Below, in pieces: positions 35,093 through 50,920 of a DNA stretch of 64,000 bases (its first letter is position 1; the number at the start of each line of letters is the position of its first letter). Position numbers and translations under genes: made by a program. The notes beneath the pieces are model-generated. The model made no database searches. It saw only the letters and a list, made by a program, of their open reading frames with translations, and was not told the origin of the DNA. This stretch comes from Actinomycetota bacterium (GTDB taxonomy: Bacteria; Actinomycetota; Thermoleophilia; RBG-16-64-13). Where the stretch lies: the NCBI GenBank assembly GCA_018830645.1, contig JAHJSA010000069.1, forward strand, positions 55,279 to 119,278, written 5' to 3'.

Positions 35093-36343
35093 GTGACAAG
35101 AATGGACCTGAGCGACCTGCGTGTGAACGGCGAGCGGCTTCGGGCGAGCCTCGAAGAGATGGCCAAGATCGGGGCGACACCGGGTGGAGGCGTGCAGCGC
35201 CTCACCCTCTCCGACGAGGACAAACGCGCCCGAGACCTCTTCGTCGGCCGGCTCGAAGAGATCGACCTCGAGGTCACGGTGGACGAGATGGGCAACATCT
35301 TCGGCCGCCGCCCCGGCAAGAACGACGAACTGCCGCCGGTCTTCAGCGGGTCGCACATCGACTCCCAGCCGAAGGGTGGCCGTTTCGACGGCATCCTGGG
35401 CGTGATGGGCGCCCTCGAAGTGATGCGCACGCTGCACGAGAACAACGTGCAGACCGAGCGACCCGTGCTCATCGTCGATTGGACCAACGAAGAGGGCTCC
35501 CGCTTTGCGCCCGCCATGGTGGCTTCGGGCGTATGGGCCGGCAAGCTCGATCGTGACTGGGCATATTCGCGCACCGACCGTGATGGCAAGGTCTTCGGCG
35601 AGGAACTCGAGCGCATCGGCTACAAAGGCTCAGCACCGGCAAAGGCCTGGCCGTTCCATGCCTACTACGAGCTGCACATCGAACAGGGCCCGGTCTTGGA
35701 GTCGATCGGGAAGACCATCGGTATCCCCAAGGGCATCCTCTGCCTGCACTGGTACGACGTGTACATCGAGGGCAAGGCCAACCAGGTGGGCCCCACGCCG
35801 ATGGAGGGCCGGAACGACGCGCTCTGCGCCGCCGCCGAGATGATCCTTGCGGTGCAATCGGTGCCGGCCCGCATGGGCGGCAACATGGTCGCCACGGTGG
35901 GTGAGATCCAGAACTATCCGAACTCGCGGAACATCATCCCCGACGGCGTTCACTTCACGGTGGACATCCGGTCCTGGGACGACCACCTGGCTATCAACGC
36001 GTGGGAGCAGCTCAAGATCGACTTCCAGGCTGCCGCCGGCAAGAACGGTTGCCCGATCCGCTTCGAAGAGACTTGGCGCGTGGAGCACACCCCCTTCGCC
36101 GAGAAGCTGGTGGGGCTCCTGGCGCAGAAGGCCGAAGCCCTCGGCTACTCCTCCCACCACATGGTCAGCGGCGCCGGCCACGACGCGAGCTACATGAACA
36201 TGCTGGGCGACGCGGCTATGATCTTCATCCCCAGCATCGGAGGACGGAGCCACGTCGAGGTGGAGAACAGCACGTGGGAAGACTGTGAATCGGGAGCCAA
36301 CGTGCTTCTGCACTGCATGATCGAGTCGGCGAACGAGGTGTAG
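35093..36343 (+). CDS. M20-family Zn-dependent amidohydrolase (allantoate amidohydrolase / N-carbamoyl-amino-acid hydrolase type)
   Basis: GSHIDSQPKGG and other M20 metal-ligand motifs. 416 aa. Confidence 0.8.
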   Translation: MTRMDLSDLRVNGERLRASLEEMAKIGATPGGGVQRLTLSDEDKRARDLFVGRLEEIDLEVTVDEMGNIFGRRPGKNDELPPVFSGSHIDSQPKGGRFDGILGVMGALEVMRTLHENNVQTERPVLIVDWTNEEGSRFAPAMVASGVWAGKLDRDWAYSRTDRDGKVFGEELERIGYKGSAPAKAWPFHAYYELHIEQGPVLESIGKTIGIPKGILCLHWYDVYIEGKANQVGPTPMEGRNDALCAAAEMILAVQSVPARMGGNMVATVGEIQNYPNSRNIIPDGVHFTVDIRSWDDHLAINAWEQLKIDFQAAAGKNGCPIRFEETWRVEHTPFAEKLVGLLAQKAEALGYSSHHMVSGAGHDASYMNMLGDAAMIFIPSIGGRSHVEVENSTWEDCESGANVLLHCMIESANEV

Positions 36344-36504: not shown

Positions 36505-36954
36505 ATGAGCGCAGGCGGCACGACCAAGGTGGAGCGGATCCTGGAAGAGAAGGGCCGCACCGTCCACACGATCGAAGCTGACCGCACCGTCTTCGAGGCT
36601 CTGGAGGTCATGGCCGAGCACGAGATCGGCGCCCTCATCGTCCTCGACGAAGAGCAGATCGTGGGCGTCCTCACCGAGCGCGACTACGCCCGCAAGGTCA
36701 TCCTCGCCGGACTCTCCTCCCCCCGCACCGAGGTGCGCCAGGTCATGGCCTCCCCGGTGGTCTACGCGACGCTCGACGAGACCACCGAAGAGTGCATGGC
36801 CGTGATGGCCGACAAGCACATCAGATACCTTCCGGTGCTCGACGGCGAAGACCGGCTGGTGGGAGTCATCTCCATCGGCGACTTGGTCAAAGCCTCCATC
36901 GCCGAGAAGGAGTTTGTGATCAGCCAGCTGGAGAAGTACATCACCGGGTACTGA
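36505..36954 (+). CDS. CBS-domain pair protein
   Basis: Two CBS motifs (GALIVLDEEQIVGVLTERD; RYLPVLDGEDRLVGVISIGD). Confidence 0.8.
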   Translation: MSAGGTTKVERILEEKGRTVHTIEADRTVFEALEVMAEHEIGALIVLDEEQIVGVLTERDYARKVILAGLSSPRTEVRQVMASPVVYATLDETTEECMAVMADKHIRYLPVLDGEDRLVGVISIGDLVKASIAEKEFVISQLEKYITGY

Positions 36955-37069
36955 GGCCGCCGCCCTGCATGGTGGGCGCTCCGCCGAGGACGCCCACTCC
37001 GCGGACAATCTGGACGAAGATCGACCTCCACGGTTGACTTGACCTCACTGTTGTATATCCACTCATCCC

Positions 37070-37570
37070 ATGGAACGCCCCGAACTCGCCATCGCCCCCC
37101 ATTGCGTAGCCGCTCGGCTGCGCCTCCTCAACCGAGCGGTGACCGGCATCTACGATCGAGCGTTGCGGGCCCACGGTCTGAAGACCAGCCAACTGAACGT
37201 GCTCGTGGCTGTGGCGACGCTCGGCCGGCCGGAGCCCGGCGACATCGCACGACTCCTCCACATCGCTCCCTCTACTCTCAGCCGGAACGCTGAGCGGATG
37301 CGCGCGGCGGGCTGGCTCGACATCGCGGCGGGGAAGGACGGGCGCTCGCAGACGCTTTCCCTCACTGCAGGGGGAGCTGAACTCCTGAACGCAGCGCTAC
37401 CCGCGTGGGAGCAGGCCCAGGAAGAAGCCGAGGCCCTGCTCGGCGAGGCGACCACCTACGCCGTCCTCCAGGCAGGAGACCGCCTGTTGGCGGCCGGCTA
37501 TGCCCAGACCGTCGGCATCCCCACAAGACCTTCGAACACGAAAACCACCGACAAAGGACGGATAGCATGA
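37070..37570 (+). CDS. MarR family transcriptional regulator
   Basis: LKTSQLNVLVAVATLGRPEPGDIARLLHIAPSTLSRNAERM is a MarR wHTH. ATGA-coupled to the downstream gene. Confidence 0.8.
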   Translation: MERPELAIAPHCVAARLRLLNRAVTGIYDRALRAHGLKTSQLNVLVAVATLGRPEPGDIARLLHIAPSTLSRNAERMRAAGWLDIAAGKDGRSQTLSLTAGGAELLNAALPAWEQAQEEAEALLGEATTYAVLQAGDRLLAAGYAQTVGIPTRPSNTKTTDKGRIA

Positions 37571-38933
37571 ACCTTGAGGACCACCCCACAGTCCGCTGGT
37601 TCCGCGAGCAGAAGGCCGCTGGCGAAGCCACGGCCACGTCGCAGGAAGACGGAGGAGTGGCCCAAGCGCTCACCCTCGAAGCCGCCCGGCTTCGGGCGAT
37701 CTGCCTGGAGGCAGGCGCCGACGCGCCGGTTTCGTCGAGATCGACCGCCCGGCGCTGGCAGGCCAGCGGGCGGGGCTTCTCGACGCCTTCCCCGGCACCC
37801 GCACCCTCGTCGGGCTGGTCTACCGCCTGAACAGGGGGAGTCTCAGGTCGACCAAGCACTCGAACGCCGGCCTCGAGTTCAAGCAGGCCTGGGATCACGC
37901 GAACCGCGCAGGGCGGGCGGCAGTCAAAAGACTCGGCGCCGAGGGCATCCCCGCGCTGAACGCCCCCGCGGGCTTCCCCTTCGACACCGAGGGCTGGCCC
38001 GGTGCTATCTGGTTCACTGCCGACAAGATCGTCGCCGAGGAGGCCGGGCACGGCAAGATGGGGAAGCACCGCTGCGTCATCCACCCCACCTTCGGCGGCG
38101 CCGTGGTGCTGAGCACGCTGCTGATCGCCGCCGAAGTCGATGCCTACGGCCAACCCCTCGACTTCGACCCCTGCCTTGATTGCGGGCTCTGCAACGGCGT
38201 GTGCCCCACCGGTGCCATCGCCAAAGACGGCGCCTTCGACTTCGTGAGCTGTTACGCCCACAACTACCGCGAGCGACTTGGAGGCTTCCAGAGTTGGGTG
38301 GAGAGTGTCGTGGCCTCTTCGAGCGTCAAGGACTACCGCAAGCGGGTGAGCGACCCGGAGACGGTCTCGATGTGGCAGAACCTCTCGATCGGCGCACAGA
38401 CGAAGTGTGACAAGTGCATGGCCGTCTGCCCGGCCGGCGAAGCCGCCATCGGCGAGTACCTCCCCGACCGCAAAGGCTACACCGAGCAAGTAGCTCATCG
38501 CCTGCATGACCGCGACGAGACCGTCTTCGTAGTGCCTGGTTCAGACGCCGAAGCCTACGTGACGAAGCGCTTCCCCGAAAAGCGTGTGAAGCGCGTCTCG
38601 AGCGGTATCCACCCGCAGTCCGCGGCAGGATTCATCGAAAACCTGCCCCTGGTGTTCCAGAGCGGGCAGTCGGCCGGGCTCGACACCACCTACCACTTCA
38701 CCTTCACCGGCGCCGAACAACTCGAAGCGACAGTCGTGATCCGCGACGGCCGGCTTGAATCCCAGCGAGGCCACGCCGGCACTCCCGACCTGCACGTGAC
38801 CGCCGACGCCGAGACCGGGGTGTCGTTCCTTGCCAAGGAGACCAGCCTGCCCAAAGCTCTCGCCACCCGCAAACTGAAGATCAAGGGGTCGCCCAAACTG
38901 ATGATGTCGTTCGCCCGCTGCTTCCCGCTCTAG
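37567..38933 (+). pseudogene. QueG-like cobalamin/[4Fe-4S] reductase (DUF1730 + ferredoxin motifs) fused to a C-terminal SCP2 sterol-carrier domain; -1 frameshift near 37717-37727 in this sequence
   Basis: Frame 0: MNLEDHPTVRWF...RLRAICLEAGADA. Frame +2 continues ...AGFVEIDRPALAG...GHGKMGKHRCVIHPTFGG...CLDCGLCNGVCPTGAI...CDKCMAVCPAG... then an SCP2-like tail (KLKIKGSPKLMMSFARCFPL). Confidence 0.6.
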
Positions 38934-38995
38934 ATCCAGGCGGGAGGCGGGCACGGCTCAGCTGAGCAGGGCCGCCGATCTCCCGACAGCTGTCG

Positions 38996-40156
38996 TCAGT
39001 GCCCGGCGTCCGCCCAGAAGTCGCGGGCCGGTCGCAGTGCGCCGTAGCCGAGGGCGTCGTCCATCTTCACGAGAGCGCGATTCAAGAACGCGCTCCGTCT
39101 GCGGACAAGGACGCGGGCCGCGTCGTGTATGACGCCCAGAGCCTTGTTGAAAGGGCACACCCTGATGCAGGTGGCGCAATCCATGCGGTTCTTGGCCCAG
39201 TAGCCGAAGCACTTCTCGGCGTCGACGTACCACTTGCGCGGGCCCGACTGATTGGAGATGTTCGGGCCTTCCGTAGTCATGGGGCCGGTGGGTATGGCCC
39301 GCGAAGGGCAGCGTTCCGCGCACTTCTCGCACGACTCGCAGAACTCCACCACGCCGAAGGAGCGGTACTTGTCATGCGCCAGGGGAAGGTCTGTCAACAC
39401 CTTGCACAGCCGCACCCGGGGGCCGAACTCAGGCGTGACAAGCACACCCATGCGGCTCCATTCCCCCAGCCCCGCGGCCATGGCTAGGGGGACGCTGAGC
39501 ACCGTATCGTTGCCACAGGGCAGAGCCCGGTAGCCCAGGCCACGGATGAACGAGGCCACCAGATTCGCCGTGAAGGCCATCTTGGAGTAGCCGAGCCCGG
39601 TGGCCGCGCCCCCCACGCCCGTCGGAGCCGATCGGATGCCCTCGTAGTCCATGGCCACGGCTATGACGACGGCGTTGTCGATGCCCTCGGGCACCTCGAA
39701 GGGGCGATGCTCGCGCTCGAGCAGGTCGAACTCGTGGGAGTATACCCAGTTCGGATGGAGGGCGCAGATGCCCACGAGATCCGCGCCTACGAACCGCGCC
39801 ACCCGTTTCACCACAGTACTCATGCCTTCCGGGGTGTCCTCCACCGGGGGGCCGGCCTCCAGGTACGGGAGCATCTTGGGGTGCACGGCATCCCACGAAT
39901 ACAGGCCGTGGTTGCTGCGGGAGTTGCCGCAGGCGGCAGACCACTCCAGACTCCACGTGCCGTTCCGGAACGCGTAATCGAGACGCTGGAACCCAGGCTT
40001 CTTCTGATAGACGATGTCGCGGTAGAAGCGCTCCGCATCGGCATGGATGGCCTCATCCCACACGCTGCGCTTGAACATCTCGTTCTTCTGATCGAAACGG
40101 GAGTCCGCGACTGGGAACGGCGGAGATTCGGGAGGGTCGGGGTGCTGCTGCATCAT
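38996..40156 (-). CDS. RdhA-like (reductive dehalogenase / QueG superfamily) cobalamin-dependent Fe-S reductase; cytoplasmic, no TAT signal
   Basis: About 110 aa precede VKRVARFVGADLVGICALHPNWVYSH. Motifs FCESCEKCAERCP and C-x10-CATCIRVCPFNK follow. No RRxFLK twin-arginine motif and no adjacent rdhB. Confidence 0.65.
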   Translation of the reverse strand: MMQQHPDPPESPPFPVADSRFDQKNEMFKRSVWDEAIHADAERFYRDIVYQKKPGFQRLDYAFRNGTWSLEWSAACGNSRSNHGLYSWDAVHPKMLPYLEAGPPVEDTPEGMSTVVKRVARFVGADLVGICALHPNWVYSHEFDLLEREHRPFEVPEGIDNAVVIAVAMDYEGIRSAPTGVGGAATGLGYSKMAFTANLVASFIRGLGYRALPCGNDTVLSVPLAMAAGLGEWSRMGVLVTPEFGPRVRLCKVLTDLPLAHDKYRSFGVVEFCESCEKCAERCPSRAIPTGPMTTEGPNISNQSGPRKWYVDAEKCFGYWAKNRMDCATCIRVCPFNKALGVIHDAARVLVRRRSAFLNRALVKMDDALGYGALRPARDFWADAGH

Positions 40157-40307
40157 GCGCAGGGGCCGATCTTCGCCCTCGGGTAGCGGCGCTCAGTCAC
40201 AAGGACACCCCTTCCTCTTCGATCGCCCACGGTCTTCGAGTCCAACATGATACGTGATGGATCGTCTGATGGAGGGCTTGGACGCGGGTGTGCGTCCCAG
40301 CGGACCG

Positions 40308-40901
40308 TCATCCCGAGATCGTCACGCCTACGAAGTAGGGGCCGTGCCGGTCTTCTCGCGGGATGAGTCCGAACCCGTGCCGCATGGCGCGCCGGTTCGG
40401 GTCGATCAGCTTCTCCTTGGGCCCCTCGAAGAAGTGCCCGAGTTCCGCCTGAAGGGCCTTGAGCGGCAACACACCGGTGGCCGCGGCCAGCGCTCCCACC
40501 ATGACGACGTTGGCCATCTTCTCGGTGCCCAGTTTGGCGGCCACCTCCACCGCCGGCACGTAGAACACGTCGATATCGGTGCGGTGGGAGCGTTCTGGCA
40601 CGAGGGTCGAGTTCACCAGCAACACACCGTGCGGCACCACCCGCGGCTCGAACTTCTCGAAGCTCGGGGTGTTCATGGCCACCGCGACGTGGGGCCGGGC
40701 GACGATGGGCGAGGCGATGTCGCCGGTGGAGATCACCACCGTGCAGTTGGCCGTGCCTCCGCGCTGCTCCGGCCCATACGACGGCATCCACGTCACATGC
40801 AGGCCGGCGTCCATGGCCGTGTACGCCAGGAGCTGGCCCATCACCATGACCCCCTGGCCGCCAAAACCGGCGATGATGATCTCCAGACGCCGTCCGAGCA
40901 T
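40308..40901 (-). CDS. korC: 2-oxoacid:ferredoxin oxidoreductase gamma subunit
   Basis: IIIAGFGGQGVMVMGQLLA, the Por/Kor gamma motif. ATGA-coupled to korB. Confidence 0.8.
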   Translation of the reverse strand: MLGRRLEIIIAGFGGQGVMVMGQLLAYTAMDAGLHVTWMPSYGPEQRGGTANCTVVISTGDIASPIVARPHVAVAMNTPSFEKFEPRVVPHGVLLVNSTLVPERSHRTDIDVFYVPAVEVAAKLGTEKMANVVMVGALAAATGVLPLKALQAELGHFFEGPKEKLIDPNRRAMRHGFGLIPREDRHGPYFVGVTISG

Positions 40902-41890
40902 CAGTCCTCGTCTTCCGCGTCGTCGTGATCGGACGGGCGGTACTCCTCCCCGTCCACCGAGACCCAGCGGCCCCCGCGGCGCCCGAAGGGATGCACGCGG
41001 CGCGTGCGCCTGCCGAGTTCGTCCTCGGTGGCCTGGGTCACGGTCTCGTAACGGAAGCCGTGCATGTAGTCCTCACGGAAGGCCGTGGGCGGTTGCTGCA
41101 CCAGGTGGGCGAGGTGCACGGGTTCACGATCCTTGATCACCCCGAGCGGGTAGTAGGCCGACACCGTCTCGTCTATCCAGCGCATCGCGTCGACCGGCTT
41201 CATGCCCCAGTTCGTGGGGCACGGCGAAAGGAACTCCACCAGGCTGAACCCTTTCCCCTCCAGCTGGTACGTGAACGCCTTGCGCACAGCGCGATAAGCC
41301 ACTTTGATGTTCTCCGGATGAGTCACCGAGACCCGCTCCAGGTACACGGCGCCGTCGAGGGTGGCGAGCATCTCGGCTACCCGTATCGGATGCCCTTGGG
41401 TCGTGGGGTCGCGGCCCTCGGGGCTCGTCTCGGACCGCTGCCCGACGAGGGTGGTGGGCGCCATCTGGCCGCCGGTCATGCCGTACACGCAGTTGTTCAC
41501 GTAGATGACGGTGATGTTCTCCGAGCGCGCCGCCGCGTGCACGATCTCGGCGGTGCCGATGGCGGCCAGGTCGCCGTCGCCCTGGTATGTGAACACCACC
41601 AGGTCTGGTCGGGCCCGCTTGACGCCCGTGGCGGCCGCGGGAGCCCGGCCGTGCGGCACCTCCTGGAAGTCCACGTCGAGGTAGTTGTAGATCAGGATGG
41701 CGCAGCCCACGCCGGCCACGCCCACCGTCCGCTCGCGCACACCGAGTTCGTCGAGCGCGTTGGCCACGAGCCGGTGGATCAGACCGTGCCCGCACCCCGG
41801 GCAGTAGTGTGTGGTGGCGCATGCCCACGATCCGGGATGCTGCACCACCACGGGGGCGGTCTGCAGAGACGGTCCCGCGGGAGCAGTCAT
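40901..41890 (-). CDS. korB: 2-oxoacid:ferredoxin oxidoreductase beta subunit (TPP-binding)
   Basis: WCPGCGHG and GDGD...N TPP motifs. Start taken at MTAPAG, overlapping the korA stop (ORF track extends to 42019). Confidence 0.85.
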
Positions 41891-43029
41891 GAGGCGCCGC
41901 CCTTCCTGGGGGCCGCTCCCGTAGCCGGCAGCTCCTCCGCCACGTTCCTGATAGCCTCCAGCACCTCGAGCGGTGCGGGGATGGTGCCGCCCGACCGTCC
42001 GAAGAAGCTCACCGGACAACGGCCCTCGACGGCGAGCCGCACGTCTTCGACCATCTGACCGGCGGACAGCTCCACCACCAAGATGTGCTCGATCCCCCGC
42101 TGCTGGACCACTTCGCGAAGCGCGTCGTAGGGATACGGATAGACGGTGATAGGCCTGAACAGCCCCACCGGGATGTCTCGCTCCTCAGCAAGTTCCATGG
42201 CGTGGTAGGCGACCCGGGCACTCGTGCCGTATGCGACCAGCAGGATCCTCGCTCCCTCGAGAGCGTACGTCTTCCAACGCACCTCCGCCTGCTCGATGCG
42301 GCGGTACTTCTCCTGCAGCGACCGGTTGTGCTCCTCCAACTCCGCGGGGTCGAGGTAGAGGCTCTTGACCACCCGCTTGGGTCTGCCGGACGCGCCGGTC
42401 GTGGCCCACTCCGGCTCCTGCAACGACGCGGGGTCGATGGCTCTCGTGAAGGTGACGGGCTCCATCATCTGCCCGAGCACGCCGTCGGCCAGCAACAGCA
42501 CGGGGATCCGGTAGGCCTCGGCTAGAGAGAACGCGTCGAAGGTAAGGTCGACCATCTCTTGGAGGTTGGCCGGCACGAGCACGATGACCCGGAAGTCCCC
42601 GTGCCCCAGCCCACGGGTGGCCTGGAAGTAGTCGGACTGACTCGGCTGGATGCCGCCCAGTCCCGGCCCCACGCGCATGATGTTCACGATCAGGCAGGGC
42701 ACTTCGGCCGCGGCCAGGAACGAGACCCCCTCCGACATGAGGCTGATACCGGGGCTCGAGCTGGCGGTCATGGCGCGCATGCCGGTGCCCGCCGCGCCGA
42801 ACACCATGTTGATCGCCGCCACCTCGGACTCGGGCTGTACGAACGTGCCACCCTCCACCTGCATCCAGCGGGCCATGTACGAGGTGATCTCGCTGGCGGG
42901 GGTGATGGGGTAGCCGAAGTAGGCCCGGCAGCCGGCCTTCAGGGCGGCCTCGGCCAGAGCCTCGTTGCCCTTCATGAGCACGCGCTCGCCCAGTGGCACG
43001 TGGGGTTCTCCCAAGACCTCAGTCACCAC
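41887..43029 (-). CDS. korA: 2-oxoacid:ferredoxin oxidoreductase alpha subunit
   Basis: [30 protein letters not shown], the typical alpha-subunit N-terminus. Confidence 0.85.
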
Positions 43030-43429
43030 GCCTACCTTCGTCCTCTCGGCCCGATACGTCGATGTTCAAGGCACTACTCTCCGAGCCGTCCAGGCGACCG
43101 GCGGCGCCCTCCACGCCGGTGACGTCTCCATCGAGGCGGATCGCCGCATCGGGGCACATGAGTTCACAGTAACGGCAGCGCACGCACCAGAAGGAGAAGT
43201 TGTACTCGAAGCGCTCTTCGTCGACATCGGGCGCGGTCTCCGCCGGGCGCTGAGCATCGACGGCTGCCTCGGCAGCCGTCTCGGGATGCGCGGGATGGTA
43301 TCCGGACACGTTGAGGTGCTCATCGATGCGCAGATGGCCGAACGGGCAGAACTCGACACACAAGCCGCAACCTTTGCATCGGTCTTCATCGACCACCGGA
43401 GCATATGACCGCGGCCGATCTGCAGTCAC
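43019..43429 (-). CDS. korD: 2-oxoacid:ferredoxin oxidoreductase delta subunit (2x[4Fe-4S] ferredoxin)
   Basis: [12 protein letters not shown] and [12 protein letters not shown] motifs. First gene of the kor block. Confidence 0.75.
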
Positions 43430-43461
43430 CTTAGAGCTCCTTCGCTCGGATCATCGGCCGT

Positions 43462-44604
43462 TCACCTTGTGACCTTACCAGGGAGAAGATACGGGTAGCG
43501 CCGGCGAAGGACACGATGCAACAGGCGATCTATTTTGCGGAAAGCGAGGTACACCCTCCATACGCGGGCGTCCTCTCGGTAGTACGAACGGACTTCCTCC
43601 GCGGAGATGGGCTCGAGCTGTCCGAGCGACTCCGGCGTCTCGCCGGTCCCATGAGGCCCCACCCGCTCCTGGAGGAACTCGTTGATCACCTCCAAGGCGA
43701 CCGGCACGAGATCCGGCCGCTGCTCCTTGATGAGGTTAGCGGCGAGGTCGATCATGACCCGCCTCACGTCGTAGTAGCGCTCGAGCACGTCGGCCAGCAT
43801 GAGCCGGCGGATGATCCACACAAGGAACGACGGTGCGCTGCGCAAGAAGAGTTCAGGGTCGAGCTGCTCCACGCCGAACCTGCGCATGAGAGGGGTGCTC
43901 GTGTCGATGTAGCGAAGCCGCGGAGCGCCGTTCCCGGCGTGCCCCACCACCACCCAATTAGAGATCTGTGCGTCGAACCCCACCTCGAGCCTGCCCCGGT
44001 TCCGACGGTTGAAGGCGAACACCCTCCAGGTTTCATCCACCACCGCTCGGAGAAGGATCCGCGCGTCGGCAGACCCCATGCCCCGTATCACCTCATGACC
44101 TGTCGTCAGCGCCGCGAACCTTTCTTGGACGATGTACAGGACGATGGGCTCCCCGTGTCGGCCGACATCGGATGACGCCCGTTCAAGGCCCAACCACACC
44201 AGATCACTCTCCGCCACGTCCACGCCCGCCTCCTCGCGGAGTATCGCCACGTAGTCTCGATGCAGCACCTCATATGAGGTGGCTTCCGCCCGTGAGCGGA
44301 ACATCGGCATGCGCTTGTAGGCTGCGGCGTCCACCGCTGCTTCGAAACCGTCCGAGCCCACCGGATCGGCACCGGGTTCGCCGCCGCTGTCGCCGGGTTC
44401 GCCGCCGCTGTCGCCGGGATCGCCGCCGCTGTCGCCGGCCACGGACCCGTCGGGGCGACGGTCCGCGAAGATCTCGAACACCGTTGTTATCTCGCCGTGC
44501 CCGAGGATGCGGGCCGGCATATGGCTCCGCTCCGGCCGACGCAGGTCGAGACCGCGCTCGAAGCGCTCGAGCAGTTCCGCGTCCGCTCTCACGGTTTCCG
44601 GCAC
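43462..44604 (-). CDS. Conserved hypothetical protein with an internal (GDSGGEP)3 repeat
   Basis: 380-aa ORF between the class III aminotransferase (4-nt gap) and korD (32-nt gap). No recognisable catalytic motif. Confidence 0.5.
   Translation of the reverse strand: MPETVRADAELLERFERGLDLRRPERSHMPARILGHGEITTVFEIFADRRPDGSVAGDSGGDPGDSGGEPGDSGGEPGADPVGSDGFEAAVDAAAYKRMPMFRSRAEATSYEVLHRDYVAILREEAGVDVAESDLVWLGLERASSDVGRHGEPIVLYIVQERFAALTTGHEVIRGMGSADARILLRAVVDETWRVFAFNRRNRGRLEVGFDAQISNWVVVGHAGNGAPRLRYIDTSTPLMRRFGVEQLDPELFLRSAPSFLVWIIRRLMLADVLERYYDVRRVMIDLAANLIKEQRPDLVPVALEVINEFLQERVGPHGTGETPESLGQLEPISAEEVRSYYREDARVWRVYLAFRKIDRLLHRVLRRRYPYLLPGKVTR
44373..44435. repeat. Three tandem copies of a 21-bp unit (CCGGGTTCGCCGCCGCTGTCG) inside the 43462..44604 CDS
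   Basis: Seen directly. Two perfect copies plus one with a single mismatch. Encodes GDSGGEP repeats on the minus strand. Confidence 0.7.
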
Positions 44605-44607
44605 CTG

Positions 44608-45879
44608 TCAGCCGCCCCGTCTGCCGCCGACGATCGCCTCCAGCGCGGTGAGCGCAGTGTCCAGGCGGTCAAGGATCTCATCTGCCAAGGCCGGCTCGAT
44701 CGTAAGGGGCGGGAGGAACTGCACCACGCTCGGGTCGTGGTACGCGTATATCGCGAGAAGTCCTGAGTCGAATGCCGTCTTCGACAGAAGGGGACCGAAC
44801 GCCGGGTCGGTGAGTTCCAGACCGAGCATGAGCCCAACGCCTCTCGACCCGGCCAGCACACCCGGGTGCGCGTCGCGCAGTTCGCCGAAGCCCGCCGAGA
44901 ACCTGGCGCCCATGCTCCGAACGTGAGCGAGGAACGCGGGTTCAGATGATAGCTCGAGCACGCGCGCGGCGACCGGGCAGCCCAGTTCGGCGCCCCCAAA
45001 GGTGGATATGTGAAGGAAAGGATCGTCGTGGAACACACTGTCGAGTTCCCGCCGGAATACGGTGGCGGTGAGCGGGAACACGCCGCCGGAGAGACCCTTG
45101 CCGAGCACCATGAGGTCCGGCGTCACCCCGTAGTGATCCACACCCCACAGCCGGCCGGTGCGGCCGAGGCCGGTCTGGACCTCGTCGATGATGAGCAATG
45201 CGCCGGCAGCGTCGCACAGCCAACGGACCTGCTCCAAGTAGCCGTCTGGGGGCACCACGATGCCCAACGTCGCCGGAATGGTCTCGAGGAGCACTGCCGC
45301 CACATGCGGCCCGAGGGCCGCAGCCATGGCGTCGGCATCCCCGAACTCCACCTGCTTGAAGCCGGGCGCAGCCGGTCCGAAGGGGGCCCTGAACTTCTCG
45401 TCGCCGGCTGCCAGGGCCAGCCCGGTGTGCCCGTGATATCCGCCGCGGGCACTCACGATGCCCGAGCGTCCGGTGAAGGCGCGCGCCACCTTGATGGCCA
45501 GGTCGACCGCCTCCCCCCCGCCTACCCCGAACACGGTGTACGCGAGGTCGCCGGGCGTCAGCTCGGCGAGACTCTCGGCCAGGGCGGCCCTCTGGGGGCT
45601 GATGAGGTGGTGATTGCCGATGTCGAGTTCGTCGAGCGCTGTGCGGAGAGCGGCGATGCAGTCCGGATGCCGGTGGCCGAGGTTGAACACGCCCCCGTTA
45701 CAGTGGCAGTCGATAAGACGCCGTTCGCCTTCCACGTCCCAGAGAAAAGCTCCCTCACGCCTCCCAAGCGCAAAATCCATACCTGCTCGCTCGAAGAAGG
45801 CGACCTTGCCCGAAGAGACGTGTTCAGCGAAGAGGGCGAACACCTCGGCTCTCAATCGTTCCCCCGGCATCCGCACCAT
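44608..45879 (-). CDS. Class III (omega/GABA/acetylornithine-type) PLP aminotransferase
   Basis: LIIDEVQTGLGRTGRLWG and other class III motifs. Start taken at MVRMPGE (ORF track extends to 45960). Confidence 0.8.
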   Translation of the reverse strand: MVRMPGERLRAEVFALFAEHVSSGKVAFFERAGMDFALGRREGAFLWDVEGERRLIDCHCNGGVFNLGHRHPDCIAALRTALDELDIGNHHLISPQRAALAESLAELTPGDLAYTVFGVGGGEAVDLAIKVARAFTGRSGIVSARGGYHGHTGLALAAGDEKFRAPFGPAAPGFKQVEFGDADAMAAALGPHVAAVLLETIPATLGIVVPPDGYLEQVRWLCDAAGALLIIDEVQTGLGRTGRLWGVDHYGVTPDLMVLGKGLSGGVFPLTATVFRRELDSVFHDDPFLHISTFGGAELGCPVAARVLELSSEPAFLAHVRSMGARFSAGFGELRDAHPGVLAGSRGVGLMLGLELTDPAFGPLLSKTAFDSGLLAIYAYHDPSVVQFLPPLTIEPALADEILDRLDTALTALEAIVGGRRGG

Positions 45880-46344
45880 CCCTCCCGTCTCGCCGCAGCC
45901 TGCACCTCTTGACTGTACTTCGCGCCATAGGCGCACCGCAACCCGGGACGACCCTCGCATACCGACCGGCTCAGGCGCCGGAACGAGTCAAGGTGCCCGG
46001 GGGCGACGGTGCACGACGCTGAATTGCCCCCGTTCCCGTGTGCATGTACAGCGTTGCGCGAGAGCGCTTCGAGGCTCACAATCGTGATGGGCCGAACCCG
46101 GGCGCCGGGTCGGCGTACAGTGCGATCGGGAGCCGACAGCGGTTCATCCCGTGTGGACTCTGACAAGCGGACCCACCTTCGGGTGGCCCGCGCACAATGA
46201 CTGATCGAGGTCGCACCCCTAGAATCGGGAGAACAGGGCGCCACGATTGAAGAACACGACTGAAGAAACCCGCGAGCCACTCACCCGCTCGAGGGAACAG
46301 CCGCCCGAGGGGCGGGACGAAACGCGTTCGACTGGAGGCGAGGA

Positions 46345-47706
46345 ATGCAGGAGTACGTCGCATCGGTGTTGGCACAGGTCAAAGCCAAGAACCCGGCAGA
46401 GCCCGAGTTCCACCAAGCGGTGGAGGAGGTCCTCGAGTCGCTTGAACCCGTGCTCGAGCGTCACCCGGAGTACCGCGCCGGCAAGATCCTCGAACGCATC
46501 GTCGAGCCCGAACGCGTAATCATCTTCCGCATCCCCTGGGTCGACGACCAAGGGCTGGTGCAGGTGAACCGAGGCTTCCGCATCGAGATGAACAGCGCCA
46601 TCGGCCCCTACAAGGGCGGACTGCGCTTCCACCCCTCGGTGAACCTGGGCATCTTGAAGTTCCTGGCCTTCGAGCAGGTGTTCAAGAATTCCCTCACCAC
46701 TCTGCCCATGGGCGGGGGCAAGGGTGGCTCCGACTTCGACCCGAAGGGCAAGAGCGACAACGAGGTCATGCGTTTCTGCCAGAGCCTTATGACCGAGCTC
46801 TTCCGCCACATCGGCCCCAATACCGACGTGCCGGCCGGCGACATCGGTGTGGGCGGTCGCGAGATCGGCTACATGTTCGGACAGTACAAGCGCCTGCGCA
46901 ACGAGTTCACGGGCGTGCTTACCGGCAAGGGCATCAACTGGGGCGGTTCGCTCGTCCGCCCCGAAGCCACCGGCTACGGCACGATCTACTTCGCCCAAAA
47001 CATGATGGGCACCAGGGGCGAGACCCTCGAAGGCAAAACCTGCTTGGTGTCCGGCTCGGGCAACGTGGCCCAATTCGCCACCCAGAAGCTCATCGAACTC
47101 GGCGCGAAGCCGGTGACCCTCTCCGACTCCAACGGCTACATCTACGACGAAGCCGGCATCGACGAGGAGAGGCTCGCCTTCGTCATGGACCTCAAGAACA
47201 AGCGCCGCGGTCGCATCAAGGAGTACGTCGAGAAGTACCCGTCGGCTGTGTATACCGAAGTGGAGCTGGGCGCCGAGGTGAACCCCATGTGGGATCACGC
47301 CGCTGACTGCGCCTTCCCCTGCGCGACTCAGAACGAGATCAGCGGGACCGACGCGGCCAACCTGGTGAAGAACGGCGTGCACTTGGTGAGCGAGGGGGCG
47401 AACATGCCCACCATGCCTGACGGCGTCTCCCAGTTCCTCGACGCCGGCATCCTCTACGGACCGGGGAAAGCCTCCAACGCCGGTGGCGTCGCCGTGTCGG
47501 GCCTCGAGATGACGCAGAACAGCATGCGGCTCAACTGGACCCGTGAAGAGGTCGATCAACACCTGCACCGCATCATGCATGACGTCCACGCCTCGTGCGT
47601 ACGAGCCGCCGACATGTACGGCACCCCCGGCAACTACGTGAACGGCGCCAACATCGCCGGCTTCCTCAAGGTCGCCAACAGCATGCTCGACCAGGGCGTG
47701 GTATAG
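46345..47706 (+). CDS. gdhA: NADP-specific glutamate dehydrogenase
   Basis: GGGKGGSDFDPKGKSD, the Glu/Leu/Phe/Val dehydrogenase active-site signature. 453 aa. Confidence 0.9.
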   Translation: MQEYVASVLAQVKAKNPAEPEFHQAVEEVLESLEPVLERHPEYRAGKILERIVEPERVIIFRIPWVDDQGLVQVNRGFRIEMNSAIGPYKGGLRFHPSVNLGILKFLAFEQVFKNSLTTLPMGGGKGGSDFDPKGKSDNEVMRFCQSLMTELFRHIGPNTDVPAGDIGVGGREIGYMFGQYKRLRNEFTGVLTGKGINWGGSLVRPEATGYGTIYFAQNMMGTRGETLEGKTCLVSGSGNVAQFATQKLIELGAKPVTLSDSNGYIYDEAGIDEERLAFVMDLKNKRRGRIKEYVEKYPSAVYTEVELGAEVNPMWDHAADCAFPCATQNEISGTDAANLVKNGVHLVSEGANMPTMPDGVSQFLDAGILYGPGKASNAGGVAVSGLEMTQNSMRLNWTREEVDQHLHRIMHDVHASCVRAADMYGTPGNYVNGANIAGFLKVANSMLDQGVV

Positions 47707-47762: not shown

Positions 47763-47950
47763 GACGTCCACCGTAGTCCAATAGACGCCCCGTGAACCAC
47801 CCCGCCGGCGCCCGCACGGCTGCGACCGACCGCCCGCCGATCCGCCGAGTCGCACCGTCCGGGGGCTCCGACTCTTGGTATCCTGTTCGGGTAGACGGGG
47901 GCCGCTCAAGGTGGGCGAAGCCCGCCCCGATCGCCGCACAGGGGAGTCCC

Positions 47951-50920
47951 ATGCCTTCGATCCACGACCTGCTCACCGATCTCAGCAATCGCAGCCGCTT
48001 CCAGGACTTCGAGGTCCTGATGTCCTCCCGCGTGGAGAACATCATCCTGGTCTCGAGCCTCTACGATAAGTTCATCCTCCAGGAAGACGGGCAGCTGAGC
48101 GAAGTGATCCTGGGCGAGTTCCTCGACCTACACCTGCACCACACCACCGGGCTCACGCACGTGGCCACGGGCACGGAAGCCCTCGAGTTGGCCCGCTCCA
48201 ACAAGACGTTCAACCTGATCATCACCGCGATCAACGTGGGCGACATGAACGCGGTCGAGCTGGCTGAGAAGGCCCGCGAAGCAGGGCTGGACGTGCCCAT
48301 CATCGTGCTGGCGTACGACGGCGGCGAGCTCTCCGACTTCATCAATCGGCACGACGTCTCCAAGATCGACAAGTTGTTCCTCTGGCAGGGCGACGTGCGG
48401 ATCCTGCTCGCGATCATCAAGCACGTCGAAGACAGGATGAACGTCGAGCACGATACGCAGGTCGCCGGTGTGCAGGTGATCCTCGTGGTCGAGGACAGCA
48501 TCCGCTACTACTCTTCGTTCCTGCCCATGATCTTCACGGAGCTGATCCGCTACTCGCAGCGGCTGATCCCCGGTGGCATGAACATCGCCCACAAGATCCT
48601 CCGCATGCGGGCGCGGCCCAAGATACTCCTCTGCACCACGTTCGAAGAGGCGTGGGACATGTTCACGCGCTACCAGCAAGACGTTCTGGGCATCATCTCC
48701 GACATCGAGTTCCCGCGGAACGGGGAGCTTGACCCGGAAGCCGGCGTGGAGTTCGCCAGCCGCGTGCGCGAGCTGTGGCCGGATGTGTCGATCGTGCTCC
48801 AGTCGGGCCGCCCGGAGAACGAAGCCCTGGCCAAGCAGGTGGGGGCCTCCTTCCTCCTCAAGGGTTCGGTCACGCTTCTGCAGGACCTGCGTCGGGTCAT
48901 GATCGAGCAGTTCTCGTTCGGCGACTTCGTGTTCCGCTCCCCCGACGGCGCAGAGATCGACCGTGCCGGCGATCTGCGCACGCTGGCGGAGAAGCTACAC
49001 ACGGTCCCGGTGGAGAGCACGGCCTTCCACGCTGAACGGAACCACTTCTCACGCTGGCTGAAGGCCCGCACCGAGTTCGCACTCGCCCATCGGCTGCGGC
49101 CCCGGAGGATCAGCGACTACGACACCCCCGAGGAGATGAAAGCAGCCCTCATCGAGACGATCGAGGAGTACCGTCGCGAACAGGGACGCACCATCATCGC
49201 CGACTTCGACCACCGCAGTTTCGACACGACGAGCTCTTTCAGTCGCATAGGCGGCGGGTCGCTCGGCGGGAAAGCGCGGGCACTGGCCTTCGTCCGGCAT
49301 CTTCTGAGCGCCGTCGACATGCACTCACGTTTCCCCGGAGTGCAGGTGTCGGTTCCGCCTTCGGTGGTGTTGGGCACCGACGTGTTCGACCAGTTCCTCG
49401 ACCGCAACGACCTGCGCGACTTCGCCATCCGCTCCACGGACACCGACGAGGTACGCAGAAGATTCCTCGCGGCACCGCTGCCCCACGAGGTCACACGCGA
49501 TCTCGTCTCGTTCCTCGAATTGATCACGTATCCGCTCGCGGTGCGCTCGTCCAGCCTGCTGGAAGACTCGCAGTATCAACCGCTTGCGGGCGTCTACGAG
49601 ACTTACATGCTGCCGAACAACCACCCGGACACGCGTCAACGCCTCCACCACCTCGAGGCCTCCATCAAGAACGTCTACGCGTCGACGTTCTCCACGCACG
49701 CCAAGAGCTACCTCGCCGCCACGCCATACCGTCTGGAAGAGGAGAAGATGGCGGTGATCGTGCAGAAGGTCGCGGGCGCCCCCCACGAGGAGCGCTTCTA
49801 TCCGGAGATCTCAGGAGTGGCCCGCTCCTACAACTTCTATCCCACCGACCCCGTGAAGGCTGAGGACGGCGTGGCCGTCGTGGCCCTTGGGTTGGGTCGG
49901 ACGGTGGTGCGCGGAGAACGGGCGCACAGCTTCTGCCCCAAGTACCCCCGACATCAACTGATCACGGGCAGTCTCGACGACACACTGCGCAACTCCCAGC
50001 GTTCGTTCTGGGCGATCGAGCTCGGCCCCCCGAGCGACGACGCCTCCCCCGATGTGTGGGAGAAGCAGTTCGACCTTGAGGCGGCCGAAGCCGACGGGAC
50101 TCTTGCCCACGTCGGCTCGACCTACTCCCCGGAGAACGAGGCCCTCTACGACGGCATCTCGCGCGACGGTGTGCGCGTGGTGAACTTCGCTCCGCTCCTG
50201 AAATTCGACCTGTTCCCGCTCGCGGGCATCATCGACCTTCTCCTCGACGTAGGCGCCCAAGGCATGGGCATGCCGGTGGAGATCGAGTTCGCGGCGAACC
50301 TCACCGTCGCCCCAGGTTCACCCAAGGAGTTCGCCTTCCTACAGATGAGGCCCATGGGGCTCTCTCGAGAGACGGAAGAGCTCACCATCGAGGATATCCA
50401 CAGCGACCGGGTGCTCTGCCACAGCAGCAGCACCTTGGGCAACGGGCGGCTCGACGGCATCCACGACGTGCTCATGGTGGACGTCGACCACTTCGACCGC
50501 TCGCGTAGCGCCGAAGCGGCCCGTGAGGTCGCCCGGTTCAACTCGAGACTCGCCCGGAACGGCACCCGCTACATCCTCATCGGAGTGGGACGCTGGGGCT
50601 CGGCCGACCCCTGGCTGGGCATCCCCGTGACGTGGGATGAGATAGCGAACGCCAAGGTGATAGTCGAGTCGGAGCTGAGAGACATCGCCGTCACGCCGTC
50701 GCAGGGCAGCCACTTCTTCCAGAACCTCACGTCGTTCCGAGTGGGCTACTTCACCGTCAACCCGGAGTCGGGCGACGGGCACGTCGACTGGGAATGGCTC
50801 GCCCGCCAAGAAGCGGTCGAGGAGGGCGAGTTCGTACGCCATCTGCACTTCACGGAGCCGCTCGAAGTCACCATGAACGGCGCGAAGCGGGAAGGGATCA
50901 TTCTGAAGCCCTCGACGTAA
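47951..50920 (+). CDS. Multidomain protein: two N-terminal receiver-like domains + PPDK_N (PEP/pyruvate dikinase nucleotide-binding, ATP-grasp-like) domain; no phosphohistidine or PEP-utilising domains
   Basis: VILVVEDS in the REC-like segment. SFSRIGGGSLGGKARALAFV and later regions match the pyruvate phosphate dikinase N-terminal domain. Start taken at MPSIHDL. Confidence 0.6.
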   Translation: MPSIHDLLTDLSNRSRFQDFEVLMSSRVENIILVSSLYDKFILQEDGQLSEVILGEFLDLHLHHTTGLTHVATGTEALELARSNKTFNLIITAINVGDMNAVELAEKAREAGLDVPIIVLAYDGGELSDFINRHDVSKIDKLFLWQGDVRILLAIIKHVEDRMNVEHDTQVAGVQVILVVEDSIRYYSSFLPMIFTELIRYSQRLIPGGMNIAHKILRMRARPKILLCTTFEEAWDMFTRYQQDVLGIISDIEFPRNGELDPEAGVEFASRVRELWPDVSIVLQSGRPENEALAKQVGASFLLKGSVTLLQDLRRVMIEQFSFGDFVFRSPDGAEIDRAGDLRTLAEKLHTVPVESTAFHAERNHFSRWLKARTEFALAHRLRPRRISDYDTPEEMKAALIETIEEYRREQGRTIIADFDHRSFDTTSSFSRIGGGSLGGKARALAFVRHLLSAVDMHSRFPGVQVSVPPSVVLGTDVFDQFLDRNDLRDFAIRSTDTDEVRRRFLAAPLPHEVTRDLVSFLELITYPLAVRSSSLLEDSQYQPLAGVYETYMLPNNHPDTRQRLHHLEASIKNVYASTFSTHAKSYLAATPYRLEEEKMAVIVQKVAGAPHEERFYPEISGVARSYNFYPTDPVKAEDGVAVVALGLGRTVVRGERAHSFCPKYPRHQLITGSLDDTLRNSQRSFWAIELGPPSDDASPDVWEKQFDLEAAEADGTLAHVGSTYSPENEALYDGISRDGVRVVNFAPLLKFDLFPLAGIIDLLLDVGAQGMGMPVEIEFAANLTVAPGSPKEFAFLQMRPMGLSRETEELTIEDIHSDRVLCHSSSTLGNGRLDGIHDVLMVDVDHFDRSRSAEAAREVARFNSRLARNGTRYILIGVGRWGSADPWLGIPVTWDEIANAKVIVESELRDIAVTPSQGSHFFQNLTSFRVGYFTVNPESGDGHVDWEWLARQEAVEEGEFVRHLHFTEPLEVTMNGAKREGIILKPST

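Follow-up and report, generated by a model that had tools for sequence, protein, structure and literature searches.

What does a gene of the reductive dehalogenase family do in an actinobacterium, next to an operon for a ferredoxin-reducing enzyme? The question is raised by a stretch of 64,000 nucleotides (hereafter the window) from contig JAHJSA010000069.1 of a Thermoleophilia-like member of the Actinomycetota, a phylum in which we know of no dehalogenators. On its minus strand, a string of genes runs from an aminotransferase and a hypothetical protein through the four subunits of a 2-oxoacid:ferredoxin oxidoreductase (OFOR) to a 386-aa protein of the RdhA family (38996..40156). Facing it on the plus strand is a pair of genes, for a MarR-family regulator and for a QueG-like protein that ends in an SCP2 domain. 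The minus-strand string, reported in a preliminary description of the locus, was confirmed by the listing of open reading frames (ORFs) and by Pfam and NCBIfam scans, as was the tail-to-tail arrangement, in which a spacer of 62 nt (38934..38995) separates rdhA from the stop of the SCP2-bearing gene at 38933. The analysis reported here makes it probable that rdhA encodes a stand-alone cytosolic enzyme and lies beside the OFOR in a variable island, with a facultative link through ferredoxin, and that the convergent gene pair is a separate, inactivated bicistron.

By profile, alignment and predicted fold, the 386-aa protein is a true member of the RdhA family and not a QueG. It passes the curated NCBIfam model TIGR02486 (221.7 bits, cut-off 160.35) and falls below the QueG model TIGR00276 (50.6 bits, cut-off 200). 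The Dehalogenase domain PF13486 gives a partial, C-terminal match below threshold (21.4 bits, gathering score 24.3); a precomputed match to this domain is present in many close homologs. Searches against PDB sequences with phmmer returned the respiratory-type PceA of S. multivorans (4UQU, E 1e-69) and the PceA of 8Q4H (E 2e-60), then NpRdhA (E 2e-33) and QueG (E 6e-8), with bit scores of 238 for PceA, 119 for NpRdhA and 35 for QueG. Over 228 aa, the core is 46% identical to PceA 4UQU. The sequence signature FVGADLVGI...WVYSH is present, as are the two [4Fe-4S] motifs, CxxCxxCxxxCP (C273/276/279/283-P) and C-x10-CxxCxxxCP (C316 and C327/330/334-P). A structure model (AF2, pLDDT 84) matches PceA in Foldseek with an E-value of 1e-27 and a TM-score of 0.73-0.76, the scores being about 0.7 for NpRdhA and about 0.4 for QueG. 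Some homologs of the protein bear the JGI label 'epoxyqueuosine reductase', which would agree with a housekeeping queG that adjoins central metabolism by coincidence. With 50.6 bits on the QueG model, a PDB match of E 6e-8 to QueG as against 1e-69 to PceA, a TM-score of about 0.4 against 0.75, and no tRNA-binding HEAT domain in the protein, such an explanation is scarcely credible.

As first described, the protein is also devoid of a twin-arginine translocation (TAT) signal and of an RdhB partner. None of 40 homologs has a twin-arginine (RR) motif; the N-terminus of the window protein is hydrophilic (hydropathy -0.15), no transmembrane helix or hydrophobic N-terminus was seen, and no upstream extension of the ORF is possible. 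No rdhB-sized ORF fits the gaps flanking rdhA (151 nt and 62 nt), beyond which lie the OFOR gamma subunit gene and the QueG-like gene, and genes of the rdhB, rdhC or rdhT type were found neither beside rdhA nor among genes with a Pfam annotation in the 21 kb around it. The product is thus predicted to be a cytoplasmic corrinoid/Fe-S enzyme. Its closest solved relatives are respiratory PceAs, which would suit a membrane-associated, energy-conserving reductive dehalogenase (RDH), but the lack of TAT signal, transmembrane helix and rdhB-, rdhC- or rdhT-type genes makes a respiratory function highly improbable.

The window protein shares with PceA (S. multivorans 4UQU; RDH complex 8Q4H) the corrinoid-binding core, the two [4Fe-4S] clusters and the Tyr, Asn and Arg equivalents, but it has neither TAT signal nor RdhB partner, is about 60-80 residues shorter at the N-terminus, and is predicted to be cytoplasmic and non-respiratory. 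In the latter respects it resembles NpRdhA and BhbA (4RAS, 6ZY1), which are cytoplasmic, TAT-less and non-respiratory and have the same fold (TM about 0.7). It differs from them by its low identity (about 25-29%, 119 bits), by its anaerobic context and by its size: NpRdhA has about 700 aa, and the 386 aa of the window protein, which align only to residues 349-616 of NpRdhA 4RAS, include neither the vestigial N-terminal cobalamin-like domain nor a fused NAD(P)H reductase domain. In the active site, T186, Y190, N216 and R249 align with Thr242, Tyr246, Asn272 and Arg305 of PceA, and an alignment of 40 homologs shows no variation at Y190, N216, R249 and the eight cysteines of the clusters.

The family to which the protein belongs is tight. 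Its members are 373-405 aa long, the best 120 matches are all at least 60% identical to the window protein, and identity between phyla within the clade is 60-67%. Retaining one genome per species gave 96 RdhA loci, of which the majority come from Desulfobacterota and the others from Chloroflexota, Actinomycetota, Acidobacteriota/Aminicenantes, Firmicutes, a few Proteobacteria and one metagenome-assembled genome (MAG) of Bathyarchaeia; 80 genome loci were used for the neighbour and tblastn comparisons. Loci of relatives' genomes or MAGs are designated by L-numbers. A 'simplified cytosolic' RdhA-like type of about 395 aa, without the vestigial NpRdhA domain, TAT signal, transmembrane helix and RdhB, was described in 2025 in Desulfobacterota and Chloroflexota of cold-seep metagenomes (PMC12219181), and cytoplasmic, RdhB-less RdhA homologs in sediments had already been recorded (PMC6129605; PMC6737245; PMC12090745). 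The window protein fits this class by its length and by the absence of TAT signal, transmembrane helix, RdhB and vestigial domain, a fit judged by the description in PMC12219181 only, and most of the orthologs recovered here likewise belong to Desulfobacterota and Chloroflexota. Unlike that set, it has an actinobacterial, Thermoleophilia-like host, a group unmentioned in PMC12219181, and an OFOR of the VorB type as neighbour. With the rdhA of the window, this class of short cytosolic RdhA-like enzymes, noticed before, gains a new member from an actinobacterium.

The four OFOR subunits are encoded together on the minus strand, in the order delta (43019..43429, a 2x[4Fe-4S] ferredoxin-like protein matching Fer4 families, PorD_KorD and OorD), alpha (41887..43029, with POR_N and PFOR_II domains), beta (40901..41890, thiamine pyrophosphate-binding, PF02775 and TPP_enzyme_C, with PorB_KorB-type matches) and gamma (40308..40901, PF01558 POR, E 7.5e-39). 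The name kor originally given to these genes, kept below as a label, is not supported by the alpha subunit, which passes the VorB-type model NF005507 (PRK07119; 512.3 bits, cut-off 399) and fails the OorA/Kor models for 2-oxoglutarate (228 bits, cut-off 579); VorB is also the name that NCBI gives to its homologs. As for the ATGA overlaps said to join the genes, one is present between alpha and beta, but beta and gamma overlap by 1 nt (TGATG), and the delta/alpha overlap depends on the choice of start codon. The enzyme resembles the known VorB type (2-ketoisovalerate/2-oxoacid:ferredoxin oxidoreductase, PRK07119) in its delta-alpha-beta-gamma genes and its set of domains, and differs from it in the C-terminal tail of beta, in its position beside a glutamate dehydrogenase (GDH) gene and, in this clade only, beside rdhA. 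The tail of beta (40901-41035) is highly charged and about 45 residues long; the best match of the PorB/KorB-type models stops near residue 250 of 329, so that the tail is not covered.

Is the OFOR dedicated to RdhA? The preliminary description proposed that korDABC and rdhA are one operon, in which a 2-oxoacid derived from an amino acid reduces ferredoxin and ferredoxin drives RdhA, while the SCP2-bearing QueG-like protein has the same lipophilic or halogenated molecule as its substrate. The genes are indeed on the same strand, separated by 151 nt (40157..40307) without a terminator-like hairpin (fold z-score +1.1), and ferredoxin systems can drive catabolic RdhAs in vitro, as is generally known. 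The adjacency itself was examined by tblastn of the window proteins over the 80 loci. The same OFOR lies beside rdhA in L001, L002 and L003 (RdhA identity of 94%, 90% and 86%), and two further cases are L084 (87%) and L179 (86%). All the genomes with this arrangement, about six close ones, are MAGs of Thermoleophilia/Actinomycetes. None of about 75 orthologs of 44-74% identity has this OFOR beside rdhA. The linkage is therefore found in a clade of at least 86% RdhA identity but not beyond it.

Within the clade, the korC-rdhA junction varies from genome to genome. In L001, a deletion of about 130 nt, which also changed the last codons of korC, has produced an ATGA overlap (-4 nt), an arrangement that favours a dedicated operon. 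The distance is about 305 nt in L002, about 700 nt in L179, where it contains a 126-aa ORF, about 967 nt in L003, and 2.6 kb in L084, where three genes intervene, two of them on the opposite strand. Sister genomes obtained by a search with the OFOR alpha subunit extend this picture. L181 (alpha 81% identical) has the PPDK-like response regulator and GDH genes, korDABC and, further on, the genes for a CBS-domain protein, an M20-family hydrolase and a flavodoxin, and its backbone region contains no rdhA, no MarR gene and no QueG-like gene. What it retains is the leader of rdhA and, from the N-terminus of the QueG-like protein, a stretch of 18 residues; therefore, the genes were deleted there. 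L182 and L183 (alpha 75% identical) are also without rdhA. Plastic junctions and the loss of rdhA from a genome that keeps the OFOR indicate that the adjacency is that of a core OFOR operon with a variable island next to it and does not amount to a fixed system, and that the arrangement in the window is a lineage-specific accident of this island.

The far side of the island is bounded by two conserved backbone genes on the plus strand, encoding a CBS-domain protein (36505..36954, PF00571) and an M20-family amidohydrolase (35093..36343, Peptidase_M20 match). The CBS gene directly adjoins rdhA in L001, L003 and L179 and adjoins the island in L084 and L181; the M20 hydrolase is syntenic and 87-96% identical in L001, L002, L084, L179, L180 and L181. 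Toxin-antitoxin-like genes are present in or beside the korC-CBS island of L084, L179 and L181. Mobile-looking genes are a DUF234 ATPase gene and HI1420-type genes inside the island in L084 (10727-13052) and L181 (10951-13290) and, in L179 (485-1222), a HEPN / nucleotidyltransferase pair that interrupts the OFOR operon between alpha and beta. Beyond the CBS gene, L179 (5607-10092) and the equivalent region of L003 have four genes of a group-3-like cytoplasmic NiFe hydrogenase and a gene for a cNMP-binding protein.

A conserved element upstream of rdhA also bears on the operon question. The 16-nt sequence TCCATCACGTATCATG, at 40246..40261 on the minus strand, lies 89 nt upstream of the rdhA ATG and has no second copy in the window. 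As a 5-4-5 inverted repeat (CATCA-CGTA-TCATG), it has the geometry of FNR/CprK-type boxes, and it holds a TATCAT hexamer that resembles a -10 box and fits TANNNT, the pattern of actinobacterial -10 boxes. The element is exact in L002, 242 nt upstream of rdhA; L084 has the version CCATGACGTATCATG, 44 nt upstream; L181 has kept a variant despite the deletion of rdhA; and it is gone from L001, removed by the deletion that joined rdhA to korC. The conservation of the element in spacers that are otherwise unalignable among its carriers suggests that rdhA is under its own control. The element is suggested to be a candidate promoter or operator of rdhA, which would normally be driven from this site, with read-through from the OFOR possible, and would be an operon member in L001. 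Upstream of rdhA in other lineages, the element and the 5-4-5 repeat were neither found nor enriched, L002 alone having the repeat, and no CRP/FNR-type regulator was apparent on reading the window ORFs. A promoter and terminator scan of 36900-46400 detected no signal that exceeded the background of shuffled sequence, nor any site between korC and rdhA. No Rfam match exceeded the gathering score in the whole window, and no cobalamin riboswitch or leader RNA was found near rdhA. The 62-nt convergent spacer contains a GC-rich hairpin, which is statistically ordinary (fold z = -0.8 and 0.1).

The neighbours of rdhA in other genomes give an indication of what the enzyme may act on. ORFs within 5 kb of rdhA were clustered across the 80 loci and representatives were annotated. 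Liv-type ABC transporters were found at 18 loci, often ending 0-240 nt upstream of rdhA on the same strand, and TRAP DctPQM transporters at 10-13 loci; at about 25 loci the rdhA ortholog is directly downstream of one or the other. Molybdopterin oxidoreductases (9 loci), class-III aminotransferases (7), short-chain dehydrogenases (6) and FAD-linked oxidases (5) were also recurrent. In two Desulfobacterota MAGs, the genes for phenylglyoxylate dehydrogenase, PadEFGHI, are divergent from rdhA (L010 4576-9334, L011 4826-9787; model scores of 777 bits for Pad alpha, 556 for epsilon and 731 for beta, each exceeding the cut-off). A PadE/F/G/I set lies downstream of rdhA on the same strand in an Eubacteriales (Firmicutes) MAG (L015 1554-5016), and PadI-like beta subunits are encoded 4-5 kb from rdhA in L009 and L026. 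From inspection of their sequences only, we take neighbouring genes in L026 to be a 4-hydroxybenzoyl-CoA-reductase-like pair, and those in L015, L050, L055 and L065 are presumably old-yellow-enzyme-like. This picture fits a cytoplasmic enzyme working on imported, probably aromatic or carboxylated substrates. A further assignment, of the genes downstream of rdhA in L010 and L011 to PaaK and IorAB, was rejected, as the sequences on inspection rather resemble PurA, MnmG and a LysE-type exporter, which leaves PadEFGHI as the one relevant neighbour in these two genomes. Other contexts are housekeeping-like (MurT/GatD, PurA/MnmG, znuABC). Operon partners of the RdhA clade change freely.

Since PadEFGHI is an OFOR, its adjacency in Desulfobacterota and in a Firmicutes MAG is an independent argument for a dedicated OFOR-RdhA pair, and these three cases are the exceptions to the rule that orthologs of 74% identity or less do not adjoin an OFOR. 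Two other arrangements point the same way. In L098 (2442-8134), the rdhA ortholog (67% identical) starts 20 nt after genes for HdrA-like, MvhD(FlpD)-containing and HdrCB-like (CCG) proteins on the same strand, possibly an alternative electron-delivery module. In L182 (3482-4252) and L183 (6828-7598), korD is preceded, on the same strand, by a gene for a 256-aa minimal QueG-like core protein, which has an enoyl-CoA hydratase gene on its other side. This protein scores 56 bits on the QueG model, matches QueG of the PDB with an E-value of 1e-10, has no SCP2 domain and is 28% identical to residues 42-291 of the SCP2-bearing family; with it, this OFOR has, independently, a second partner from the QueG/RdhA superfamily. 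The supply of ferredoxin from the OFOR to RdhA, as first proposed, is thus in keeping with the different low-potential redox modules that adjoin rdhA, but the support is moderate, not strong. The OFOR may well feed RdhA with reduced ferredoxin, which is plausible; a conserved OFOR-RdhA system is not what the comparison reveals. In other Actinomycetota, rdhA overlaps the start of the gene that follows it, which is an MscS-type channel gene in Thermoleophilia FR_37 (L081 10001-12219) and a short-chain dehydrogenase gene in L093-L095 (L093 7001-8940).

The upstream part of the proposed operon is less conserved than the OFOR. The class-III aminotransferase (44608..45960, minus strand, PF00202, E 1.6e-80; the gene caller places the start near 45870) and the DUF6206 protein (43462..44604, minus strand, PF19709, E 7e-19) are found only in the window and, among the relatives, in L001, and are thus accessory. 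The best NCBIfam match of the aminotransferase is putrescine aminotransferase, below the cut-off (316 bits, cut-off 612), which places it with the omega-amine type. Omega-amine transaminases turn their amine substrate into aldehydes, not 2-oxoacids. Occurrence in a single relative and omega-amine best matches both weaken the route from an amino acid through aminotransferase and OFOR. The DUF6206 protein had no NCBIfam match and no meaningful match in the PDB; the idea that it is kinase-like found no support, as comparison with PDB sequences gave chance-level P450 matches only.

What, then, of the convergent gene pair? The MarR gene (37070..37570, plus strand, MarR_2, E 2.7e-9) is the first of a bicistron and overlaps by ATGA the start codon of the second gene (37567..38933, plus strand), which encodes a QueG-like core, 2x[4Fe-4S] and the SCP2 domain (PF02036, E 3e-9). 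This second gene is disrupted. In a three-frame translation, the frame open at 37567 stops at 37830 and another runs to 38933, leaving ORFs of 87 aa (37567-37830) and 291 aa (38058-38933). Alignment of the DNA with the intact gene of L084 (GACG-CGCC versus AACGACGCC) locates a 1-nt deletion near 37726, after codon 54 or so, where frame 1 passes into frame 0, and intact homologs (444-459 aa) align over 100% of the repaired 455-aa sequence. Assemblies from ENA and from Logan both have the split ORFs, and they are 100% identical over 8,766 bp; therefore they are not independent evidence for the frameshift, as the reads may be shared. A programmed frameshift at 37726 was considered and rejected: there is no slippery or shift-prone sequence, and the pattern across the clade, with a decayed gene in L002 and L181 and none in L001, L003 and L179, agrees with gene loss. 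An intact copy is present in L084 and L180, and only a remnant survives in L181; in L002 (11204-12079), a deletion has cut the gene to its C-terminal 291-aa ORF, 16 nt after the CBS stop codon. Two different lesions, the frameshift of the window and the deletion of L002, have thus left the same 291-aa ORF, which starts with MGKHRC and retains the 2x[4Fe-4S] and SCP2 parts. Its dN/dS between window and L002 is 0.12, similar to that of neighbouring genes, so the losses may be recent, or the Fe-S and SCP2 half-protein may still be functional.

The pair is better understood at the level of its family. QueG-like-SCP2 homologs gave about 3,000 matches, including Thermoleophilia, Desulfomonile and Alkalispirochaeta. 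Of the 61 metagenome loci of the family with enough flank, 50 have a MarR gene upstream in the same orientation, often abutting; in Desulfomonile, TetR takes its place. The intact homolog P0123 remains below the QueG equivalog (51 bits on TIGR00276, cut-off 200). The best fold matches of its AF2 model (pLDDT 80) are QueG (E 9e-9), PceA and NpRdhA, and its tail matches the SCP2 domains of alkylsulfatases. The family has eight invariant cysteines. It is thus like QueG (5D08, 5D6S), its best PDB fold match, in core and first-cluster sequence and in the eight cysteines for 2x[4Fe-4S], but it has an SCP2 lipid-binding domain in place of the tRNA-binding HEAT domain and is encoded with MarR or TetR. 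No paper on an epoxyqueuosine reductase with an SCP2 domain was found, and a broader literature search likewise returned nothing relevant. As a description of the family, a MarR-coupled QueG-like reductase with an SCP2 domain is therefore correct, by gene order and by the QueG/RdhA-type fold, but the gene is broken in the window. The pair is also no MarR-regulated rdh operon of the RdhR type, since the MarR gene, which overlaps its QueG-like partner, runs towards rdhA from the opposite strand.

An RdhA-like neighbour was found at none of 80 metagenome loci of the family, and in the clade the gene is frameshifted in the window, truncated in L002 and absent from L001, L003 and L179. The pairing of the QueG-like-SCP2 gene with rdhA in the window is a local coincidence, and the notion of a paired paralog, with two reductases sharing one lipid substrate, is not supported by the evidence. 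This removes one part of the dedicated-operon proposal; with rdhA confined to one clade beside this OFOR, separated from it by three genes in L084, lost in L181 and preceded by an element of its own, and with an unconserved aminotransferase, we regard the proposal as a whole as unlikely. With similar reserve, one may imagine that in this lineage the OFOR and the soluble RdhA form a self-contained cytoplasmic redox loop, clearest in L001, in which oxidative decarboxylation of a 2-oxoacid feeds the dehalogenation of an imported organohalide, possibly a halogenated precursor of the same oxoacid. The PadEFGHI neighbours, the QueG-like gene of L182 and L183 and the MarR bicistron family could reflect the same logic of coupling an OFOR to a B12/Fe-S reductase. 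If true, it would be a fermentation-type, non-respiratory electron sink, in which low-potential electrons of an OFOR feed B12/Fe-S reductases acting on hydrophobic or aromatic substrates.

The reading that we favour, a stand-alone rdhA in a variable island, would work as follows. The backbone, made of GDH and the VorB-type four-subunit OFOR on one side and of CBS and M20 on the other, would serve catabolism in an uncultured anaerobic Thermoleophilia-like actinobacterium, and the korC-CBS interval would hold two separate accessory modules in this genome. In the first module, RdhA would receive two electrons from a carrier of low potential, either ferredoxin or flavodoxin, and use them to remove the halogen from an imported organohalide, probably carboxylated or aromatic, by reduction; its role would be non-respiratory, whether catabolic, detoxifying or as an electron sink. 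The neighbouring OFOR would be a plausible local source of reduced ferredoxin, and the link would be facultative; rdhA appears to have its own control element and is separated from the OFOR in L084, fused to it in L001 and lost in L181. The second module would be a widespread regulator/reductase pair, inactivated here by the 1-nt deletion and functionally unrelated to the adjacent rdhA.

Several points weigh against this reading. In L001, korC and rdhA form a true overlap operon, and in the window neither the scan nor RNA folding revealed a terminator between the two genes, so that co-transcription with the OFOR is possible. OFOR genes near rdhA orthologs in three phyla, together with the QueG-like gene of L182 and L183, hint at a link that is not accidental. 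The frameshift could be a sequencing error. Finally, dehalogenation is attributed to the clade from homology and conserved residues only, and the identity of 60-67% between phyla is unusually high for RdhAs, which are usually much more divergent; it might indicate one conserved, possibly non-organohalide substrate. Carried further, this would mean that the proteins of the clade, of about 385 aa, do not act as dehalogenases, and that their corrinoid/Fe-S scaffold reduces a common non-halogenated metabolite, as QueG reduces an epoxide, the neighbours reflecting the pathway of this metabolite. Many genomes do have a single copy in a housekeeping-like context, and no characterised member of the short type was found in the literature. 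However, the proton-donor Tyr of PceA and its Arg and Asn partners are invariant, the curated RDH model is passed, the core shares 46% identity with a proven dehalogenase, and tandem paralogs are present in L079, L074 and L032. In L079 (302-6064), a Peptococcaceae MAG, there are four tandem short-RdhA paralogs, 37-44% identical to the window protein, and multi-copy rdhA arrays are typical of dehalogenating organisms. A non-dehalogenating clade therefore appears distinctly improbable.

Anoxic sediments contain abundant cytoplasmic RdhA homologs without a TAT signal. For their short type, the leads provided here are a very conserved clade with the catalytic residues of PceA, a frequent pairing with Liv/TRAP importers and aryl-2-oxoacid enzymes, and the fusion with an OFOR operon in one lineage of actinobacteria. 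They narrow the search for substrates towards imported halogenated organic acids, and make ferredoxin reduced by the OFOR a testable donor. The MarR and QueG-like-SCP2 pair, widespread and unstudied, adds a third architecture to the QueG/RdhA superfamily and would be worthwhile for biochemistry. The most useful outcomes are therefore at the level of families: the transporter and aryl-oxoacid context of RdhA, the MarR bicistron, and the QueG-like gene that precedes korD in L182 and L183.

On the other side of the minus-strand string, the backbone continues with the divergent GDH gene (46345..47706, plus strand, ELFV_dehydrog), which is syntenic and 74-95% identical in L001-L003, L181 and L183. 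It is followed by a gene for a 1042-aa protein of unusual architecture (47792-50920), with a PPDK_N (PEP-utilising) domain and a faint response-regulator N-terminus, which also adjoins GDH in L181 and L183.

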